From sequence record MH571750.1: 64,000 bases of DNA. One strand, written 5' to 3'. Shown in pieces: positions 1 to 42,736 of this stretch (its first letter is position 1; each line of letters opens with the position of its first letter). The notes beneath the pieces were generated by a model that was not told the origin of the DNA, made no database searches, and saw only the letters and a program-made list of their open reading frames with translations. The position numbers were made by a program, and so were the translations under genes. This stretch comes from Escherichia phage vB_EcoM-Ro111lw.

Positions 1-16
1 GCCCCCTTAACATTTT

Positions 17-1110
17 CTTAACAATTTCTTAACAAACCCTACATAGTTATGCTTTTAAGGCACTTGTTAGAGACTTGTTAGCCCCTTGTTAAATCTCTGT
101 TAAGACCACGTAAAAGCCTTGTAAGAGTCTTTGGCATAGCCTTTAAAGCTCCTATAAAGCCCTATAAAGAGGTGTCTGTATAGTTGGGGTGTAGATACTA
201 GGAAGAGGTTTAAAAGAGCTTACAAGGAGCTATAGAGAGCTTTTAAGAGGTATGTTTAAGAGTTCACTAAGAAAGGAAAGGGAACGATAAGGAAGAGATA
301 GTGACCATGTTAATAGCTTGTTAAAAAGATTAAACACTTGTTAGAAACTTGTTAATTATCTAATTGGTATTGTTACCAATCCCTAACAAAATAACTCTTT
401 AAAATTAACTTGTTAGCTCTTGTTAGTCATCTGTTAAGCCTCTGTAAAGACTATTCAGCACTTGTTAGAAAACTGTTAAGCCCTTGTTAGTTCTGTTAAG
501 AAACTGTTAAGACCTTTGAAGAGTTGTTAAGAAGATGTGAGAACTGTTAAGAGATTGTTAAGGATATTTTAAAATTTTGCAAAGTACTTGTAAGGGAGCT
601 GTTAAGGGCTACCAAGCAGATATACATCTTCTACAGATATTTTTCAGTCCCTTCAAAGACCCTAAAAAATGACTTGATAGCCCTATTTTATAAAAATTTT
701 AAAATTCTGAATAATTACCTATACAGTCTTTTAAAAATACAGGTAGAAACAGGCTTATAAGATACCTTGTTAGTACCGTGTTAGACCTTGTGAGATAAGG
801 TCTGTAAAGATATTCCTGTTAAGTTTGTTAAAACAGTCTATATAGAGGCTTAGTATTACCTAGTGAACCCTATAGAGGGTAACATAGCTAACCTAGAGAT
901 TAAGAGGTGTATAGAGGTTTCTAAGAGCGTATAGAGAGGTGGTTAAGGTGATTGTATAGGTTGTTAAGAAGGCTTGTTAGAAGAGTGTTTAGAGGGCTAT
1001 TTAGAAGGGTTATACAGAGGGGCTATTAAGACCACTAGATAGTTACTAAGATACTATATAGTACTATATAACTATATAGAGAGTAAGATTAAGAAGGTTG
1101 TTAAGAAGGA
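17..1110. repeat. Dense array of about 30 short degenerate repeats (consensus YTTGTTAR / CTGTTAAG, some inverted as CTTAACA) interleaved with GTATAGAGRG and CCTATAAAG motifs; iteron-like non-coding region
   Basis: Read directly: e.g. acttgttag at 62-70 and 73-81, tctgttaag 97-105, cttgttag/ctgttaag run 408-563, ccttgttag 765, gttgttaag 959 and 1098; tatagag motifs at 867, 909, 930, 1073. No ORF of 60 aa or more in 1-1214. Confidence 0.6.
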
Positions 1111-1170
1111 TAGATATTTTATTCACATATGATGGTGACCCAGAGGTTGGGACAACCGATAAAATTTTAT

Positions 1171-1202
1171 AAAAAATTAAAAAGCCCCCAATTAAGGAGG
1201 CT
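1171..1202 (-). terminator. Rho-independent terminator-like hairpin (AGCCTCC / GGGGGCT stem followed by a T-run on the minus strand)
   Basis: Reverse complement reads agagcctccttaattgggggctttttt; lies just downstream of the minus-strand gene ending at 1215. Confidence 0.5.
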
Positions 1203-1214
1203 CTTAAGATATTT

Positions 1215-1838
1215 TTAAATCAGTGTTTCCAGAACTGTTTTTAGTGATGACTTGGTTGTCTGATAAAAATGAGTAAAGCCGTTGTTGTTATCAAATACCT
1301 GCATCATGATATCATCTCCCTTGATTGGGTACACTCGGATATCATAGTGAAAACCATTAAAGACACAAGAACCACTACAGAATGCTCTAAAGTCATCTAC
1401 TGAGATATACTCTTCATGACCTGTGATTTTTATACAAACACCTTTACTCGGTCTCTTAGGGTTGATATCTTCCATCACAGACATACTCTGTCCACCAAGA
1501 GATACCATAGTGACCACTTTACGGTTCTTCTGTTTAAAGTACATCTTAACTTTCTGCAAAGTGTCTTCATAGAATGGATAAGACCTTTCTACAAAGATTC
1601 CTTCAAGTGGCTCTTTACCATTTTCAACTTCTCGGTTATGCCGTACTGCAAAGATAATTTGTTCGAACCAGTCAAGATTTTCTTCGGAGAGTGCTTCCCG
1701 AACATCCTTCCAGTCAAGTACTAAGTAGTTACCTTCAACTTCTTTTAAGTTATCTTTTTCCATATCTATCACACCATTATCGTAAAACTTGATATTCTGG
1801 TACTGCGAATTTATTACTATTGTTCTTGATGAGGTCAT
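1215..1838 (-). CDS. Hypothetical protein (207 aa; true start may be the internal Met giving 1215..1763)
   Basis: ORF track; first ATG overlaps the upstream gene by 62 nt, an internal Met would remove the overlap. Confidence 0.5.
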   Translation of the reverse strand: MTSSRTIVINSQYQNIKFYDNGVIDMEKDNLKEVEGNYLVLDWKDVREALSEENLDWFEQIIFAVRHNREVENGKEPLEGIFVERSYPFYEDTLQKVKMYFKQKNRKVVTMVSLGGQSMSVMEDINPKRPSKGVCIKITGHEEYISVDDFRAFCSGSCVFNGFHYDIRVYPIKGDDIMMQVFDNNNGFTHFYQTTKSSLKTVLETLI

Positions 1839-2241: not shown

Positions 2242-2659
2242 AAGCTCTCCGAATAACCCTATTAAGCATCTCTAAAGTCAGCTTTCCAGACTCTAAATGT
2301 GGCATAACAAGCTTTAAAGCTTTTTCAACATCATGCACAACATCTATTATACCTTCTTCATAGGCTTCTACAAGGATATCTTTTACGTTTTGTTGGTTAT
2401 CTTTTTGTGGTATTGCTAGACGCATATCAAACTCATTTGCTTGAGGGTGGTCACTACCATGCCAGTAACCATCTTTGTTAAAGCTGATGTAGTCACCGTG
2501 GTAAAAGTGTACACCATTAGCTTTAAACTTCTCCAGCACAAGGCATTGAATTGGGTATTCAGTATTCCACTCCCTGACTCCTATAACCTTCACTGTTGCG
2601 ATGTACTCCTGTGTTTTTGCATCTATGATGTCAAGTTCTTGACCAGCTATGATTTGCAT
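2231..2659 (-). CDS. Hypothetical protein (142 aa)
   Basis: ORF track; start overlaps stop of upstream gene (translational coupling). Confidence 0.55.
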   Translation of the reverse strand: MQIIAGQELDIIDAKTQEYIATVKVIGVREWNTEYPIQCLVLEKFKANGVHFYHGDYISFNKDGYWHGSDHPQANEFDMRLAIPQKDNQQNVKDILVEAYEEGIIDVVHDVEKALKLVMPHLESGKLTLEMLNRVIRRAYEN

Positions 2660-3014: not shown

Positions 3015-3548
3015 CTATAATTGTAGGTTGCACTCTTTACTTACCTCTTCAAGTTTAACCTCAGAGTCCTTAAGTCGTTTCTTATGAACTCTGAATCTCA
3101 TTAGTGAGATGATGATACCAACTAAAGGTACAGCATACAAGTACCAAACATCATATACCTTTGCAGTAATCTGTGTAATGGTCAAATCTTGAGCTATGGA
3201 ACTGATTGCTGATACTGCCAGTAATGTTGCTAAGAAAAATGCCAGTACCATTACTGTACTCAAACAACCTCTGGCATGGTGTTCATGCTTAATGCACTTA
3301 TTCTTTTCGTCAACAACCCTGTTGTAGTCGTTTGTAAAGTCTCTGTAGAAAGCTTTCAAGTATTCTTTATTGTAACCTTCAAAGCAACCTGTACCGTACC
3401 AATAATCACCACCAAAATGTGCTATGATACCAGTATCCCCGTTTGGTTTGGTTACTCTTAAAGAAGTATGATGGCGAGTATCCTGATAATCTATCTTATA
3501 TCTCTCTTCAAAAATCATTTTCCAACCCCTCTCAATCGTTTGTTCCAT
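3015..3548 (-). CDS. Hypothetical membrane protein (177 aa, two predicted C-terminal TM helices)
   Basis: Hydrophobic stretches LSTVMVLAFFLATLLAVSAISSIA and YLYAVPLVGIIISLM in the translation. Confidence 0.5.
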   Translation of the reverse strand: MEQTIERGWKMIFEERYKIDYQDTRHHTSLRVTKPNGDTGIIAHFGGDYWYGTGCFEGYNKEYLKAFYRDFTNDYNRVVDEKNKCIKHEHHARGCLSTVMVLAFFLATLLAVSAISSIAQDLTITQITAKVYDVWYLYAVPLVGIIISLMRFRVHKKRLKDSEVKLEEVSKECNLQL

Positions 3549-3733
3549 TCAAGGTCAACAAATCTTTGCAGGACTTTCCCTCTAGGTGTTACACCTTTTA
3601 AATCTGCATCGTAACAATGGTAAAAGTCACCTTCAGCATGTTTACCATAGCATTTTCTGATATTCTGGCTTCTGCGATACTGTTCTAACAAGGACAGTTT
3701 GTAGTAATCTTCAACTGTAGTTAGTTTTTTCAT
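3515..3733 (-). CDS. Hypothetical protein (72 aa)
   Basis: ORF track; co-directional with neighbours. Confidence 0.4.
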   Translation of the reverse strand: MKKLTTVEDYYKLSLLEQYRRSQNIRKCYGKHAEGDFYHCYDADLKGVTPRGKVLQRFVDLEWNKRLRGVGK

Positions 3734-14377: not shown

Positions 14378-14620
14378 ATGCAAACATTAACAGTAGTTGA
14401 ACATGAAAACTGTGAGAGTATTGAGTTTGTCAGGGTCATTGGTGTTGAACACCACATTTTCTTAAAAGTGGGATACTTATGTGACCCCGCTAGAGTAGAA
14501 AGATTTATACGTGATTGTTTTGGTGGTAGACATCTGAAGAGTGTTATTTTTGAGACAGTTTTACCAGAAGGTTTAGAAACGAATAATAACATTTACCTCC
14601 TTACGAGGATTAGACAATGA
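14378..14620 (+). CDS. Hypothetical protein (80 aa) embedded in the tRNA array
   Basis: ORF track; AAGGTG Shine-Dalgarno 8 nt upstream of ATG; stop overlaps the next start (ATGA). Confidence 0.5.
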   Translation: MQTLTVVEHENCESIEFVRVIGVEHHIFLKVGYLCDPARVERFIRDCFGGRHLKSVIFETVLPEGLETNNNIYLLTRIRQ

Positions 14621-15174
14621 GATACTTAAAGTATGCTTCATGGATTTTCTTAGCTTTGTTAGAGCCATTTGCAGCAATCTTAGCAGTTATCTTAGCACCT
14701 TTTGTAGTTCCATTCTACAGTGAGAAGAAAGGACACTTACCTTTCGGGTTCAGATGGATGGAGACATATGACAACCCAATTGATGGTGATGAAGGTCACG
14801 TTAAAAGATGGGCTAATATTAGATGGATTGGTAAACTAGGCGTCTACATGCAAAGAGTTGGATGGCTCTGGAGAAACAAAGCTTATAACTTCTCTTACCA
14901 TGTATTAGGAAGAGATGTAAAAGATGTTACTAAGTGGAAAGGTAATATCAACGTAAGTTCTAACCCTGAAGATAATCAGACTGGTTATCTCCTAATGTGG
15001 AACAGTAATGCTTGGGGATTATTCGCTTTTATCCCATCAATTAAAGTCTTCGGTAAACAGTTTTACTGGAGAATTTATGTTGGATGGAAACTTAAAAGTG
15101 TTGTCCCAGAAGAAAGAGCATTCTCAAGGGAAAGAGTTATGTTGGCATTCTTTATTCATCCACTGAGAAAGTAA
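14617..15174 (+). CDS. Hypothetical protein (185 aa) with N-terminal transmembrane helix, embedded in the tRNA array
   Basis: ORF track; N-terminal WIFLALLEPFAAILAVILAPFVV hydrophobic segment; Trp-rich. Confidence 0.5.
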   Translation: MRYLKYASWIFLALLEPFAAILAVILAPFVVPFYSEKKGHLPFGFRWMETYDNPIDGDEGHVKRWANIRWIGKLGVYMQRVGWLWRNKAYNFSYHVLGRDVKDVTKWKGNINVSSNPEDNQTGYLLMWNSNAWGLFAFIPSIKVFGKQFYWRIYVGWKLKSVVPEERAFSRERVMLAFFIHPLRK

Positions 15175-15182
15175 AGATTTAA

Positions 15183-15258
15183 AGGGGATTAGTTTACAAG
15201 GTTAAAACCTCGGTCTTTGAAATCGAAGAAGTTGGTTCAATTCCAACATCCCCCGCCA
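15183..15258 (+). tRNA. tRNA-Gln (anticodon UUG)
   Basis: Acceptor AGGGGAT/ATCCCCC (1-72 mismatch), D-stem GTTT/AAAC, anticodon stem TCGGT/ATCGA loop CTTTGAA, T-arm GTTGG-TTCAATT-CCAAC, CCA. Confidence 0.75.
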
Positions 15259-15260
15259 AT

Positions 15261-15339
15261 GCTCCATTACTCCAATTGGCAGAGAGGCCAGACTTAAAAT
15301 CTGTGTTATGTATCGGTTCGAATCCGATATGGAGTACCA
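15261..15339 (+). tRNA. tRNA with Leu anticodon UAA and short variable loop; tRNA-Leu(UAA), atypical class I-like
   Basis: Acceptor GCTCCAT/ATGGAGT, anticodon stem CAGA/TCTG loop CTTAAAA, T-arm ATCGG-TTCGAAT-CCGAT, A73, CCA; 79 nt. Confidence 0.55.
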
Positions 15340-15344
15340 AATTT

Positions 15345-15420
15345 AGCGGTATAGCATAACTGGCAATGCAGCAGTCTCTGAAGCTGTCCTATTAAGGTTC
15401 AAATCCTTATGCCGCTGCCA
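15345..15420 (+). tRNA. tRNA-Gln (anticodon CUG)
   Basis: Acceptor AGCGGTA/TGCCGCT, anticodon stem GCAGT/GCTGT loop CTCTGAA, T-loop TTCAAAT, CCA. Confidence 0.7.
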
Positions 15421-15450
15421 CTTCTAAGGATTCTTACGAGAGTCCTTAAA
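15421..15450 (+). promoter_or_regulatory. Hairpin carrying the conserved 10-mer TTCTTACGAG (copy 2)
   Basis: cttctaaggattcttacgagagtccttaaa; same 10-mer as at 11560. Confidence 0.35.
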
Positions 15451-15451
15451 T

Positions 15452-15527
15452 GTGGCCTTATCATAAATGGTAATGACCCATGCTGTGAACATGGTCTATA
15501 CGGGTTCAAATCCCGTAGGTCACCCCA
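15452..15527 (+). tRNA. tRNA-His (anticodon GUG)
   Basis: Acceptor GTGGCCT/AGGTCAC, anticodon stem CCATG/CATGG loop CTGTGAA, T-arm ACGGG-TTCAAAT-CCCGT, C73, CCA. Confidence 0.8.
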
Positions 15528-15532
15528 ATTTA

Positions 15533-15609
15533 TAGTCCAAGTAGCTTATATGGTTAAAGCGCGTGTCTGAAAAACATGAGAAGAGGGTTCAAATCCCACT
15601 GGACTACCA
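15533..15609 (+). tRNA. tRNA-Phe (anticodon GAA); 3' end ambiguous (CCA directly follows the acceptor stem)
   Basis: Acceptor TAGTCCA/TGGACTA, anticodon stem CGTGT/ACATG loop CTGAAAA, T-loop TTCAAAT. Confidence 0.7.
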
Positions 15610-15625
15610 ATTTCAAAGGTGCTTA

Positions 15626-16360
15626 ATGAAAGAGATGACAGAACAAGGTAAGGAGATTTTCAATCTCTTAAAAACCGGTAAAGGGTTTTCTAACCCCCTT
15701 ATTACTGGTGCAGCAGTTCTCGGTGGAACCGTAGCTGCCTCTACATCACTTGTAAGCTCTATTAGCTCTGTATCAGACCCTACAGTAAAGGATAAGCTTG
15801 TTGCTGCTGGACTTACAACAGTTCTGCTTAACAGCTTTACCACGAGTCTGACAAGCACTACATCAACTACCAAAACACTAACAGATTACGGTCAAAAGTC
15901 CATTGATGAGTTTTCATCACGTATGCAGGTAGCAAAAGGTTACTCTAATGTTATGGGTGCAGCAGGTGAACAAGTTGGCTGTACACCATTTAGTGGTATT
16001 ATGGGTGTTGCTACAGAGTATGGTCAAAAAGCTATTGATACGATTAACAGTGCACTAGATAGTGTTAATGGTGTGTTAAGTGACTTACAAGATGCTATTG
16101 ACAAAGGTCTTGATACTATTTCTGATTTAGCTGAGCAAGCTGTTAGTAAGATTAATGAAGGTATTTCAAAAATTACAGCTTATGCAGATGAAGTTGTGCA
16201 GATGATTGAAGAAGAAGCTGCTCTTATTGCAGAGTACCTTAAAACGAATATCAATGGGTTCTTAGCAGGTATCTTACCAGACTGGTTTGATGATGCTTGT
16301 AAAACTGGTGTAATTGACACTATTGCAACACCAGAAATGAAGAACGCATTACAGAAATAA
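15626..16360 (+). CDS. Hypothetical Ser/Thr-rich protein (244 aa) embedded in the tRNA array; start trimmed from ORF-track 15563
   Basis: ORF-track start at 15563 lies inside tRNA-Phe; internal ATG at 15626 is preceded by AAAGGTG. Confidence 0.5.
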   Translation: MKEMTEQGKEIFNLLKTGKGFSNPLITGAAVLGGTVAASTSLVSSISSVSDPTVKDKLVAAGLTTVLLNSFTTSLTSTTSTTKTLTDYGQKSIDEFSSRMQVAKGYSNVMGAAGEQVGCTPFSGIMGVATEYGQKAIDTINSALDSVNGVLSDLQDAIDKGLDTISDLAEQAVSKINEGISKITAYADEVVQMIEEEAALIAEYLKTNINGFLAGILPDWFDDACKTGVIDTIATPEMKNALQK

Positions 16361-16362
16361 AT

Positions 16363-16455
16363 GGAAGATTAACCCTAAAAGGTAAGGGAGCAGTTTGCTA
16401 AACTGCCAGTAGCTGAGAAATCGGTGTACCAGTTCAAGTCTGGTATCTTCCTCCA
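16363..16455 (+). tRNA. tRNA-Ser (anticodon GCU), long variable arm
   Basis: Perfect acceptor GGAAGAT/ATCTTCC, anticodon stem GCAGT/ACTGC loop TTGCTAA, long variable arm, T-arm ACCAG-TTCAAGT-CTGGT, CCA. Confidence 0.8.
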
Positions 16456-16459
16456 ATTT

Positions 16460-16535
16460 GAATCCGTGACAGAAATGGCTATGTGCCTGTCTGCAAAACA
16501 GGTTTATAAGGGTTCGAGTCCCTTCGGATTCTCCA
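16460..16535 (+). tRNA. tRNA-Cys (anticodon GCA)
   Basis: Perfect acceptor GAATCCG/CGGATTC, anticodon stem CCTGT/ACAGG loop CTGCAAA, T-arm AAGGG-TTCGAGT-CCCTT, CCA. Confidence 0.8.
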
Positions 16536-16572
16536 AGTTATTTTACTCTCTCTCAATTAAAATAATAATAAT

Positions 16573-16632
16573 GCCCTGCTATAAGTATTCTTCATTTCGC
16601 TACCGAAGAGTATTTTTAGACAGGGCTTTTTT
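16573..16632 (+). terminator. Rho-independent terminator ending the tRNA operon (GCCCTG ... CAGGGC + TTTTTT)
   Basis: gccctgctataagtattcttcatttcgctaccgaagagtatttttagacagggctttttt read directly. Confidence 0.65.
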
Positions 16633-16697
16633 ACAGAGTTATACTTTATAGGAAGACTTATATAGTATGTCTCTGACGTACATTGTGGTTTCTCCTT

Positions 16698-16964: not shown

Positions 16965-18581
16965 TTGCGGAGGCGCTTAATGGACTTAAATGCTGTTAAG
17001 CAGAAGCGAGTGGAAGATGTTAGGAAAGTCCTAGCTGGAGAGTTGGGGCTTTCTGATGAAGTAAAAGAAATTATCAAATCATTCGGTAAAGACCCCTCTA
17101 AATTCCTTCCAACTCAAATTCTGACTTTATTAAGATACACACCAGACCAAGTTAGACTTATCTTCAAATTGATGACTGATAAGAATTATGTAGCCCCTCA
17201 GCCGGGTTCTCAAGAGGTCTTTTTAAATACTAATGCTGACTTGGTTCTCTATGGTGGTGCTGCTGGTGCTGGTAAGACTGCTGCATTGTTAATGGACTCT
17301 TTAAGATTTATCGAAGACCCTAACTATAACGCTGTATATTTCCGTCGAAATACAACACAGCTACAAGGTGGTTTATGGCCTGCTGCAAAGAAACTATTTG
17401 GTAAGTTTGGTGGGATTCCTCACGAGCAGAAAATGACTATCACATTCCCTTCTGGGGCAACTATCAAGTTTACCTACCTAGAACTTGAAAAGCACGCTGA
17501 AGGTCATCAGGGTATTGAGTATTCAGCTATTTACTTTGACGAAGGTACTCACTTCTCTGCTTCACAGATTTCATACCTACAGACTCGTCTACGTTCTGGG
17601 GCTGAAGGTGATTCATACATGAAGATTTCTATGAACCCAGACAGAGACCACTTTATTTACGATTGGGTAGAACCATTCTTAGATGAAGAAGGTTACCCAG
17701 ACCCTGAAAAGTGTGGTCGTATTCGTTGGTATGTAATGAATGATGGTGTTATGGTTTCTGATTGGGAGAGAGACAAGATTCTTGAAATGTTTCCTCTTGA
17801 GATTCCTCAAACATATACATTCATCTCTGGTACGATTGATGATAACCCAATTCTTGACTTCTTAGAACCTAAATATCGTGGTAAGTTGGAAAACAACACC
17901 CCTGTAAACGTTGCAAGACTTCGTTTCGGTAACTGGAAGGCTCGTGCAGAAGGTTCAAACTATTGGCAAAGACAATGGTGTGAAATTGTTGATTCACTCC
18001 CAGAAGATGTATTCGATGTCAGAGCATGGGACTTAGCAGCAACTTTACCATCTGAGATTAACCCTAACCCAGACTGGACAGCAGGTGTTAAGATGGGTAA
18101 ATCTAAAAAAGACGGTTGCTATTATATCATTGATGTAGTAAGATTTAGAGATAGACCCTCTGGAGTCGAAACACAAATTAATTTGACTGCTGAAAGTGAC
18201 GGTAAGCGAACTGGTATTTTTATCCCTCAAGACCCAGGCGCTGCTGGTAAATCCTACGCAACATCCCTCATCAGGAAACTTGCCGAGAAAGGTTATCGAG
18301 CAAGAGCTAAACCAACAAATAAAGACAAAGTTACCCGATTTGCGGGGTTTTCTGCTGCTTCTGAAGCTGGACTTGTAAAAGTCTTGAGAGGTAGTTGGAA
18401 CGAAGCTTACTTTCAAGAACTTGAAGGCTTTTGTGGTGATGGTAAAACTAAAGATGACCAAGTGGATGCTACCAGTGATGCTTTCAACAGTCTTAACGAA
18501 GTTAAATTATTCAAGCCACCATCAATGGGTGCTCACACAGACTTAGTGAGAGGAAACCCATATGAGGGGCTTAGACGTTGA
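16965..18581 (+). CDS. Terminase large subunit
   Basis: Walker A ATPase motif LYGGAAGAGKTAA near the N-terminus; Walker B-like AIYFDEG; size 538 aa; position at the head of the structural module. Confidence 0.9.
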   Translation: MRRRLMDLNAVKQKRVEDVRKVLAGELGLSDEVKEIIKSFGKDPSKFLPTQILTLLRYTPDQVRLIFKLMTDKNYVAPQPGSQEVFLNTNADLVLYGGAAGAGKTAALLMDSLRFIEDPNYNAVYFRRNTTQLQGGLWPAAKKLFGKFGGIPHEQKMTITFPSGATIKFTYLELEKHAEGHQGIEYSAIYFDEGTHFSASQISYLQTRLRSGAEGDSYMKISMNPDRDHFIYDWVEPFLDEEGYPDPEKCGRIRWYVMNDGVMVSDWERDKILEMFPLEIPQTYTFISGTIDDNPILDFLEPKYRGKLENNTPVNVARLRFGNWKARAEGSNYWQRQWCEIVDSLPEDVFDVRAWDLAATLPSEINPNPDWTAGVKMGKSKKDGCYYIIDVVRFRDRPSGVETQINLTAESDGKRTGIFIPQDPGAAGKSYATSLIRKLAEKGYRARAKPTNKDKVTRFAGFSAASEAGLVKVLRGSWNEAYFQELEGFCGDGKTKDDQVDATSDAFNSLNEVKLFKPPSMGAHTDLVRGNPYEGLRR

Positions 18582-20064: not shown

Positions 20065-20564
20065 TGGCTGAAGTTATCTCTATTTCAAATGCTACACGAG
20101 TGCATTCGTATAGGGGTGTCCTTATCATTACTGATAAGTTATCTGTAGAGGCTGGCTCAAGGGTCAGCCTTTCAGGTTATGTTAGTGATGGTGGAGTCTC
20201 TGACGTTTTCACTATTTGCAGGTTACTTGATGCACCAATGAGTGGTAAACCGTTTATTTCAGGAAATTGTAGTGAAATTGTTAAAATTCCATTTGACAGT
20301 TCATGCCTTTTGGGTGTAAAGTTATATAACTGCGAGAATAAACGTATCAATGTTAATAGCATTGAAGCCGCTTTCATTACCCTCGACACTGCATTTCAAT
20401 CCCCAATGACAGTTAACAAAGAAACAAACAGACTTGAATACATTTTTTCACAAAATGATTACAAAGTACTTGTCAAAGGTAAAGTATATGATATGATTGT
20501 AAATGTGGTAGATGAATCTGGTAACCATTCAACAGTCCTTAAACAAAAAGTAAGGTTTAATTAA
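20064..20564 (+). CDS. Hypothetical head-module protein (166 aa)
   Basis: ORF track; start overlaps portal stop. Confidence 0.5.
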   Translation: MAEVISISNATRVHSYRGVLIITDKLSVEAGSRVSLSGYVSDGGVSDVFTICRLLDAPMSGKPFISGNCSEIVKIPFDSSCLLGVKLYNCENKRINVNSIEAAFITLDTAFQSPMTVNKETNRLEYIFSQNDYKVLVKGKVYDMIVNVVDESGNHSTVLKQKVRFN

Positions 20565-42220: not shown

Positions 42221-42736
42221 TTATTTAACCTCAAAAACTGGTTCAAGAACCAATATAAAATCTACACAGTCATCTTCTTCATCCAGAATACCATCAAAGT
42301 TCTTAGGAACGAAGTCGAAGAGGCTCATCACAAAGCAGTCAGAAGTAACCCTGATAGTTCCTCCAATGTTCTCTACAGTTAACACTGTACGACTTTCTTT
42401 TACCTCTCGCAAAAGATTACTCACAAAGTCATCTAAGAAGTACTTCATCAGTGATTTAAAGCCTTTAGGGTAATCTGTACCAGAGTATGTTTCAATCTGA
42501 GGTACAAGCTTAACATTTATACTAGTCTTTGTTAAGAATGTGTTAGAGAACATACTATCAGGTAACTTACAAACAATCTTTCCAGTACCTTCATGTTCAA
42601 TCTCAACAAAACCAGCTTCATCGCCACATGTAACTATTTTAAAAGATGCTTCATTCTCACACTGTGAAGCCATAAACTTTTTAAGCATCACTTTAAGGAA
42701 ATCTGCATGAGCATCTTGTAAGTAGACATCAATCAT
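42221..42736 (-). CDS. Hypothetical protein (171 aa)
   Basis: ORF track. Confidence 0.5.
   Translation of the reverse strand: MIDVYLQDAHADFLKVMLKKFMASQCENEASFKIVTCGDEAGFVEIEHEGTGKIVCKLPDSMFSNTFLTKTSINVKLVPQIETYSGTDYPKGFKSLMKYFLDDFVSNLLREVKESRTVLTVENIGGTIRVTSDCFVMSLFDFVPKNFDGILDEEDDCVDFILVLEPVFEVK

Follow-up and report, generated by a model that had tools for sequence, protein, structure and literature searches.

What is the DNA at the left end of Escherichia phage vB_EcoM-Ro111lw, and what might read the short repeats that fill it? The stretch analysed here (the window) comprises 64,000 bp of sequence record MH571750.1, numbered from its first letter. An earlier note, made from the letters alone, had described positions 17–1110 as a non-coding region saturated with short degenerate repeats and had offered a replication origin, a partition or packaging site, or a terminal repeat region as explanations. 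Comparison with relatives indicates that a Felix O1-like myovirus has its left physical terminus at window position 1, that 1–613 is its short direct terminal repeat (DTR), and that 614–1214 is conserved non-coding DNA. The DTR is filled with copies of an 8-bp unit, set one helical turn apart and mirrored at the two cut sites. We regard the chances as evenly poised that these phased units are protein-binding sites organising the formation of the genome ends.

The terminal repeat and its boundaries

The first 1250 bp of the window match 255 phage records, 232 of which cover at least 80% of the query, with identities of up to about 93%. Almost all of these records belong to Felixounavirus, with Felix O1, wV8 and Bas63 among them. 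Window position 1 aligns with position 1 of vB_EcoM-Pr103Blw (MW481326; window 1–1250 and Pr103Blw 1–1248 are 93% identical), where 1–581 is annotated as a short direct terminal repeat, the length of 581 bp having been obtained by PhageTerm. In UAB_Phi87, the ends were mapped by Bal31 digestion and run-off sequencing, which gave a repeat of 608 bp. Both repeats occupy the same locus as that in the window and have the same boundaries, and the reports on them give the repeat length only. For this genus, a terminal repeat has already been recognised and annotated.

Both genome ends bear the repeat in three deposited relatives, with 0 mismatches (Pr103Blw, 581 bp; ZX4221, 591 bp; NBEco005, 651 bp), and in these three genomes it starts with GCCCCCTTAACATTTTC and finishes with GTTAAGGGCTACC. 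The flanks, with a slash marking the cut, read ...GTAAATGCTA/GCCCCC... on the left and ...GGGCTACC/AAGCAGATATAC... on the right, the right flank beginning with AAGCAG; they are found in all Felix O1-like loci that carry both boundaries, and also in Mooglevirus, and the boundaries do not vary among 19 relatives. The Erwinia phages of Kolesnikvirus, including phiEa21-4, keep the right flank AAGCAGATATAC, and one of them, M7, has a 444-bp DTR with 0 mismatches between the ends. The records of Roscha1, Hena2 and Prophecy begin at most 3 nt from the homologous left boundary. The resulting boundary rule (GCTA/GCCCCCTTAACA ... GTTAAGGGCTACC/AAGCAG) places the DTR of the window at 1–613; applied to UAB_Phi87, it predicts 614 bp, as compared to the published 608 bp. 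Across the window and 18 relatives, the predicted DTR length lies between 569 and 658 bp, in most cases changing by steps of about 10 bp.

A scan of IMG/VR with the 17-mer GCCCCCTTAACATTTTC returned 32 loci, about half of them unrelated, and the latter were excluded by also requiring the right-boundary sequence. The rejected contigs (L009–L011, L013, L017, L018, L020, L026, L027, L029, L031, L032, L034, L035, L037 and L038) match GCCCCCTTAACATTTTC exactly, and on L010, the one locus inspected, the match falls in an apparent long coding region. Such matches are chance occurrences of the word, multiplied by one family of related contigs.

Phasing, orientation and conservation of the TGTTA units

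Only two open reading frames (ORFs) in positions 1–1214 reach 30 aa, with lengths of 35 and 31 aa. A tRNA search of the same positions found none, and an Rfam search, run on a relative of 93% identity, returned no family. The principal repeat unit is 8 bp long, either CTTGTTAG or CTGTTAAG, with an invariant TGTTA core and a phase of 11 bp, equivalent to one helical turn. Its enrichment is evident for each form of the motif that was counted in 1–1200 and compared with the other 62.8 kb of the window: YTTGTTAR (13 on the + strand and 2 on the − strand, as compared to 23 elsewhere; 34-fold denser), CTGTTAAG (8 and 0, as compared to 14; 30-fold) and YTGTTAR (25 and 3, as compared to 77). The 28 copies of YTGTTAR contrast with 1.72 ± 1.30 (maximum 6) in 1000 dinucleotide-preserving shuffles of the region, and its densest 300-bp window holds 16 copies, as compared to 4 in the best such window elsewhere. 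The description as non-coding and repeat-saturated is therefore borne out. An equal frequency of the motif elsewhere in the genome had been put forward by the earlier note as one finding that would refute its reading. This is not the case: YTGTTAR is 19-fold denser here, and a second cluster is found neither in the rest of the window nor in the remaining 28 kb of a relative, except for the second DTR copy.

The units are overwhelmingly in one orientation. The TGTTA(A/G) core occurs 27 times on the + strand and four times on the − strand in 1–1214, and three of the four inverted cores are gathered at 7–34, the extreme left end, with the fourth at 383. The earlier statement that copies occur in both orientations is correct in that inverted copies exist, but it misleads as to their number and placement. 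Nor are the units irregularly spaced, as had been stated: 12 of the 26 spacings are 10–11 bp, most of the others are about 20, 31 or 44 bp (three are 20 bp), consecutive phased units come in runs of three to five, and a period of 10.5–11.5 bp gives the top spectral peak in both halves of the region. The comparison with CRISPR had rightly been set aside, the units being 8 bp in an 11-bp frame, degenerate and without unique spacers. About 24 TGTTA units lie inside the DTR, the last at 599–606; weaker units go on past it (766–832, 961–981 and 1097–1105).

The features of the region are given below from left to right. Scores in bits refer to an 18-bp ArcA-box matrix, which we built from 115 boxes derived from chromatin immunoprecipitation (ChIP; published Table S3); native ArcA boxes score 9–21.5 bits against it (mean about 15.7, maximum 21.5).

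1–613: the short DTR in its left copy, a prediction for this genome from the boundaries in its relatives
7–35 (− strand): three inverted cores, TTAACA at 7, 18 and 29 in 11-bp phase, forming two overlapping ArcA-type boxes
63–104 (+ strand): array A, four units (CTTGTTAG twice, CTTGTTAA and CTGTTAAG) at an exact spacing of 11 bp; ArcA-type boxes of 11.8, 10.6 and 17.9 bits
140–169 (+ strand): second repeat family, CCTTTAAAG followed by two copies of CCTATAAAG, with a period of 10
307–356 (+ strand): array B, four TGTTA units at 308, 319, 339 and 350; boxes of 17.7 and 17.2 bits
362–383 (+ strand): palindromic insert of 22 bp, AATTGGTATTGTTACCAATCCC, which splits a head-to-head pair of units
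408–438 (+ strand): array C, TGTTA at 411, 421 and 432; one box of 14.1 bits
461–562 (+ strand): array D, eight TGTTA units (463, 474, 485, 494, 505, 525, 545 and 556) in about 100 bp; CTTGTTAG and CTGTTAAG alternate, giving a super-period of 22 bp; boxes of 17.2, 15.2, 11.6, 14.8 and 15.3 bits
588–613 (+ strand): the final two units (TTGTAAG and CTGTTAAG) and the right DTR boundary, ...TGTTAAGGGCTACC/
614–760: unique A+T-rich segment to the right of the DTR, with the invariant AAGCAGATATAC
766–832 (+ strand): array E, weaker TGTTA units outside the DTR at 768, 779, 817 and 826; boxes of at most 9.7 bits
836–1090 (+ strand): third repeat family, TATAGAG(G) and ACTATATAG, in tandem rows
1180–1205 (− strand): intrinsic terminator of the leftward gene cluster, a stem of 10 bp with a run of T after it; it closes the non-coding region

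The arrangement at the two ends of the DTR is a mirror image. The TTAACA triplet starts 6 bp from the left terminus, and, taking the sequence together with the ends of the relatives, both virion 3′ ends finish with ...TGTTAAGGG(GGC) or ...TGTTAAGGG(CTACC). As the left triplet is inverted, the arrays at both virion ends point at the terminus and stop 6–8 bp short of it.

The layout is retained well beyond Felixounavirus. In the DTR, the columns of the motif core are conserved at 0.95, as compared to 0.85 for the other columns (circular-shift p ~0.005), and insertions and deletions among relatives comprise whole units of 11 or 22 bp; by 11-bp insertions, the left-edge triplet has become four copies in L012 and five in L015. 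TGTTAAG ranks first or close to first among the 7-mers of the homologous intergenic region in Felix O1, Moogle and phiEa21-4, and all three follow the same plan, in which the left edge of the repeat carries inverted units and the right edge a forward array. The alignment of phiEa21-4 to the window spans only about 80 bp, and the array D segment (query 502–584) is the sole stretch in which nucleotide similarity to the Erwinia phages can be detected. Outside the repeat, 614–1180 is conserved at 0.94, as compared to 0.84 in the adjoining coding sequence (19 distinct genomes). In the Pseudomonas relative PaP1, the terminal 1.4 kb is coding and has no TGTTA, a layout too different to discriminate between explanations; its host is not known to have ArcA. 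The phased TGTTA units, their mirror layout and a factor binding them are not described in the papers on Felix O1, wV8, VpaE1, Pr103Blw and UAB_Phi87, the first three of which make no remark on the region at all. The 11-bp phasing, the pointing at both cut sites with a gap of 6–8 bp and the retention throughout the subfamily, Erwinia phages included, thus seem not to have been described before.

The DTR lies at the meeting point of two gene clusters. In circularly permuted records, the rightward genes stop about 450 bp short of window position 1 and the leftward genes at 1215, so that the clusters face each other across about 1.6 kb of non-coding junction. The junction is closed by intrinsic terminators on both sides, at 2592–2610 (+ strand) of L002, the relative tootiki, and at 1180–1205 (− strand) of the window.

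What the units may bind

We propose the following for the formation of the ends. In replicating concatemers, the left end of the window would join the approximately 450 bp of non-coding DNA at the right genome end, producing the 1.6-kb junction. Terminase would cut at ...GCTA/GCCCCC... and at ...GGGCTACC/AAGCAG..., and each virion would receive the 613 bp between the cuts at its two ends, in the manner of T7-type packaging. The TGTTA units would be cooperative binding sites for a protein of the winged-helix type that coats one face of the DTR; the bound protein would build a complex that marks the positions of the two cuts and perhaps also pairs or protects the ends. Binding to the units and a role in cutting are suggested by the phasing at one turn, the direct orientation, the cooperative-looking runs, the mirror layout at the cuts and the purifying selection on the core. 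Small terminases form rings, and the eight phased sites in about 100 bp of array D might correspond to roughly one turn of DNA around such an oligomer.

In P1 pac and in lambda cosB, the cleavage site is flanked by arrays of short elements to which the small terminase binds, with the host protein IHF as an accessory. The window shares with them the several copies of a short element around a terminase cut, and a DNA-bending protein of the host participates in lambda. Both systems have far fewer copies (seven hexamers in P1 and three R sites in lambda) of other sequences, and a known small terminase; P1 pac is moreover regulated by Dam methylation of GATC within its elements, for which the region in the window has no counterpart. 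T7 (NC_001604) resembles the window in having a short exact repeat of 160 bp at each end, with 7-bp CCTAAAG units that lie inside the repeat near the left end, form a dense same-strand array to the right of it and also occur to the left of the right-end copy. Its concatemer holds just one repeat copy, which is duplicated at packaging. T7 differs from the window in the core sequence, in lacking an ArcA-type box, in having units that are not mirrored at the repeat borders and in having a known small terminase; its left-end early promoters read inward, whereas in the window the phage genes converge on the junction. The name given to the flanking short-repeat series of T7, SRL and SRR, is said to go back to Dunn and Studier in 1983.

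Several points weigh against this proposal. No binding protein is known, and the authors of the Felix O1 study found the large terminase only. Neither the seven ORFs upstream of the large terminase gene (16965–18581) nor the ten ORFs flanking the junction gave a DNA-binding or small-terminase match in Pfam or PHROGs, the latter matching only families without known function. Nine ORFs around the large terminase matched only unknown families, one HNH endonuclease, the large terminase itself and the portal, and the annotation of Bas63 lists no small terminase. The 66-aa ORF immediately upstream of the large terminase gene is acidic and has near-identical homologues only; it is predicted to be a helical hairpin (pLDDT 83), without a fold match in the PDB (best E = 5). 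That no small-terminase gene was recognised lowers the claim to a classical pac site, not the claim to a pac-like way of working. The approximately 24 sites far exceed what a cut site needs, and weaker units run 500 bp beyond the DTR. T7 is reported to tolerate most insertions at its genome ends, so the arrays may be individually dispensable; the main text of the PhageMaP study of Bas63 gives no insertion fitness for this intergenic region. The window covers 64 kb from the left end only, so that the DTR of this genome is inferred from relatives, and the deposited termini of Kolesnikvirus differ by 2–3 nt between laboratories, which leaves the exact cut geometry uncertain. Lastly, a near-perfect match to the ArcA box would be unexpected if phage machinery alone reads the sites.

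This match leads to the strongest alternative, which we hold possible rather than probable: the arrays would be bound by ArcA-P, a response regulator of the host that is active at low oxygen, as in the gut, and would not be read by packaging proteins. ArcA-P would polymerise along each DTR, where it may cap or pair the ends after injection, displace H-NS from the A+T-rich DNA of the region or be titrated as copies of the phage build up. Published ArcA-P sites consist of two to five direct repeats with the core TGTTA, 11 bp from centre to centre and with extra repeats at 11 or 22 bp, and their affinity rises as consensus repeats are added. The core, the spacing and the direct multi-repeat arrays of the window fit this definition. 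Eight boxes of at least 15 bits lie in 1–1214, as compared to three in the rest of the window (62.8 kb) and an average of 0.10 in shuffles of the region; the boxes of 12 bits or more that contain TGTTA all fall within 1–613, and the remaining 28 kb of the relative has no box of 15 bits or more beyond its DTR copy. The two left-end boxes (22.7 and 22.5 bits) score above every native box in the matrix. Moogle reaches 23.4 and 22.5 bits despite its divergence, and boxes in phiEa21-4 and M7 score 20.3, 19.7, 20.4, 18.0, 20.4 and 19.2 bits. The left-end box TGTTAAGAAAATGTTAA agrees at 16 of 17 positions with TGTTAAGTAAATGTTAA, the site at the PY promoter of plasmid R1 that has been footprinted with ArcA-P; at that promoter, ArcA and TraJ jointly could displace H-NS from nearby sites in vitro. 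The recorded hosts are all Enterobacterales. The phages appear to encode no homologue of ArcA or of the OmpR family: a tblastn search with ArcA against all phage records gave no hit in Ounavirinae, and the best match of a local search had E = 1.6.

On the other side, the resemblance to ArcA boxes was spotted after the fact, and many winged-helix proteins, related regulators among them, use direct repeats set about 11 bp apart, so the same core could belong to the site of a phage protein. In the internal units, a flanking C and G are kept (CTTGTTAG and CTGTTAAG), for which the ArcA matrix has no requirement. Native ArcA sites, with their two to five repeats, normally overlap promoters, whereas here about 24 candidate sites fill a 613-bp DTR of a lytic phage in which no promoter is evident (matches of at most 9/12 positions, with converging genes). 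We found no publication that links ArcA to a lytic phage genome or describes TGTTA arrays as equivalent to ArcA boxes. Felix O1-type phages grow well aerobically, and arcA goes unmentioned in a paper on a genome-wide screen in Salmonella that included Felix O1; an essential role for ArcA is therefore precluded. It may have a conditional or accessory one, dispensable in aerobic laboratory culture, and with ArcA-P as an accessory factor the two explanations would be compatible. We think it less likely than not that ArcA-P is a biologically relevant binder.

Two further observations concern ArcA-type sites. Beyond the terminal region, only three boxes reach 15 bits, at 42529–42546, 20267–20284 and 20447–20464 (16.6, 16.6 and 15.3 bits). 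A scan of IMG/VR for four TGTTA at 11-bp phase returned more than 120 diverse contigs, giant-virus bins included; 11-bp tandem repeats are thus common, and the scan, being uninformative on the use of a host factor, was dropped.

A replication origin, in which the repeats would be initiator iterons and the A+T-rich 660–740 the unwinding element, is unlikely. The arrays do flank an A+T-rich and highly conserved core, the 22-bp super-period of array D is a typical iteron size (iterons are about 17–22 bp), although the core itself has only 8 bp, the region is non-coding and insulated from transcription, and some phage origins, such as that of P4, use 8-bp repeats. An origin does not, however, predict that the strongest phased pairs end at the DTR borders, with the arrangement at one cut site mirroring that at the other. 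The region contains a single DnaA box, with one mismatch, and no IHF consensus; there is no initiator-like gene nearby, the ten flanking ORFs matching families of unknown function only; and the GC skew of the window tracks gene direction, with nothing specific at this region. The explanations offered by the earlier note thus divide: terminal repeat and packaging stand for 17–613, and the origin implied by "iteron-like" finds no specific support. DnaA and IHF boxes, tRNA genes and Chi sites were tested as readings in their own right and dropped.

It is very improbable that the repeats are functionless products of replication slippage and unequal recombination in a tolerated non-coding spacer. 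Changes by whole copies of 11 or 22 bp among close relatives, with the spread in DTR length that goes with them, are what such a process would leave, but the core is better conserved than the spacers, conservation is higher in the non-coding DNA than in the gene next to it, and the core, phase and orientation plan persist in genera that can no longer be aligned. Least credible of all is an element of transcription, either a cluster of promoters or a non-coding RNA with repeated motifs: TTAACA matches five of the six positions of the −35 hexamer TTGACA and the + strand is purine-rich (0.53–0.57) with positive GC skew, but promoter-like sites, 8 in number, are no commoner than in shuffles (4.6 ± 2.1) and are all weak, each matching 9/12 positions only, terminators insulate both sides, the flanking genes point inward and Rfam gives no match.

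Neighbouring sequence and what the arrays would mean

Two further repeat families share the region. CCTATAAAG occurs in two copies (151 and 161), just as the earlier note had it. The GTATAGAGRG that it listed as a repeated motif is present once (929), the actual unit being TATAGAG, with six copies in 1–1200 (841, 871, 910, 930, 1075 and 231), as compared to five in the other 62.8 kb (63-fold denser). The 836–1090 block of this TATAGAG(G)/ACTATATAG family lies outside the DTR, and we suggest no binder for the family. In phiEa21-4 (L042, 2250–2555), about 16 CTTCTAA(A/G) units follow one another at about 11 bp to the left of the terminal repeat and outside it; this array is absent from the Escherichia and Salmonella phages. 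In tootiki, three 22-bp tandem repeats of GCTWWAAAGTTAYTTTGAAGTA (L002, 2934–2999, at the right genome end) abut the left cut from outside the repeat, and its 450-bp left flank has units of the CTATAAAG and CTCTATAG types and no TGTTA units.

Small insertions also distinguish the relatives. AATTGGTATTGTTACCAATCCC interrupts the conserved pair TTGTTAATTATC and TTAACAA, and fifteen aligned sequences lack the 22 bp at this point. It is single-copy in the window; the element, or a version of 48–49 bp, occurs at other positions of the DTR or in the other orientation in L007, L021, L033, L039 and L040, and it looks like a tiny mobile hairpin element. A 24-bp insert, ATGAGGTAGATTCTACCGAATCAA, lies just to the right of the repeat (equivalent to window 628) in L023, L033, L040 and Moogle; a similar sequence recurs by the terminator in Moogle (L041, where the two sites are 3086–3110 and 3680–3700), and ATGAGGTAGATTCTACCGAATCAA may be a second small hairpin element.

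The first leftward gene (1215–1838) encodes 207 aa here and 182 aa in most relatives (for example Pr103Blw 1213–1761), and this coding stretch is less conserved than the non-coding DNA beside it. Further into the window, 26 tRNA genes form a single cluster (10867–16535) upstream of the large terminase gene. An ORF for an HNH endonuclease of 137 aa (13538–13951) sits between tRNA-Gly and tRNA-Thr, and a 75-aa ORF (16424–16651) that overlaps tRNA-Ser and tRNA-Cys is probably not a gene.

The basic identity of the region is ordinary, as it is the terminal repeat of a well-known phage genus and has been mapped in relatives. Of the roughly 250 deposited Felix O1-like genomes, most are circularly permuted and lack the repeat, and the boundary rule allows the true ends and the repeat to be annotated in all of these genomes. 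With no recognisable small terminase in these phages, the phased, mirrored TGTTA arrays shared across genera are obvious candidates for the cis-acting sites of end recognition. The ArcA-box match supplies a cheap and specific hypothesis. It may be, although we lean towards doubt, that the Ounavirinae have filled their terminal repeat with some two dozen consensus-grade candidate ArcA-P sites, the strongest being the three that lie 6 bp from the DNA end. If so, ArcA-P in the low-oxygen gut would polymerise at each concatemer junction as well as on the two ends of the incoming genome, where it might act as an end cap or pairing scaffold, displace H-NS, assist a terminase without a small subunit or be drained from its host targets. 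Should ArcA-P bind, a lytic phage would, unusually, have wired the oxygen sensor of its host into its chromosome ends, and this would bear on how therapeutic phages of the Felix O1 type behave in the anaerobic gut as compared to aerobic laboratory culture.

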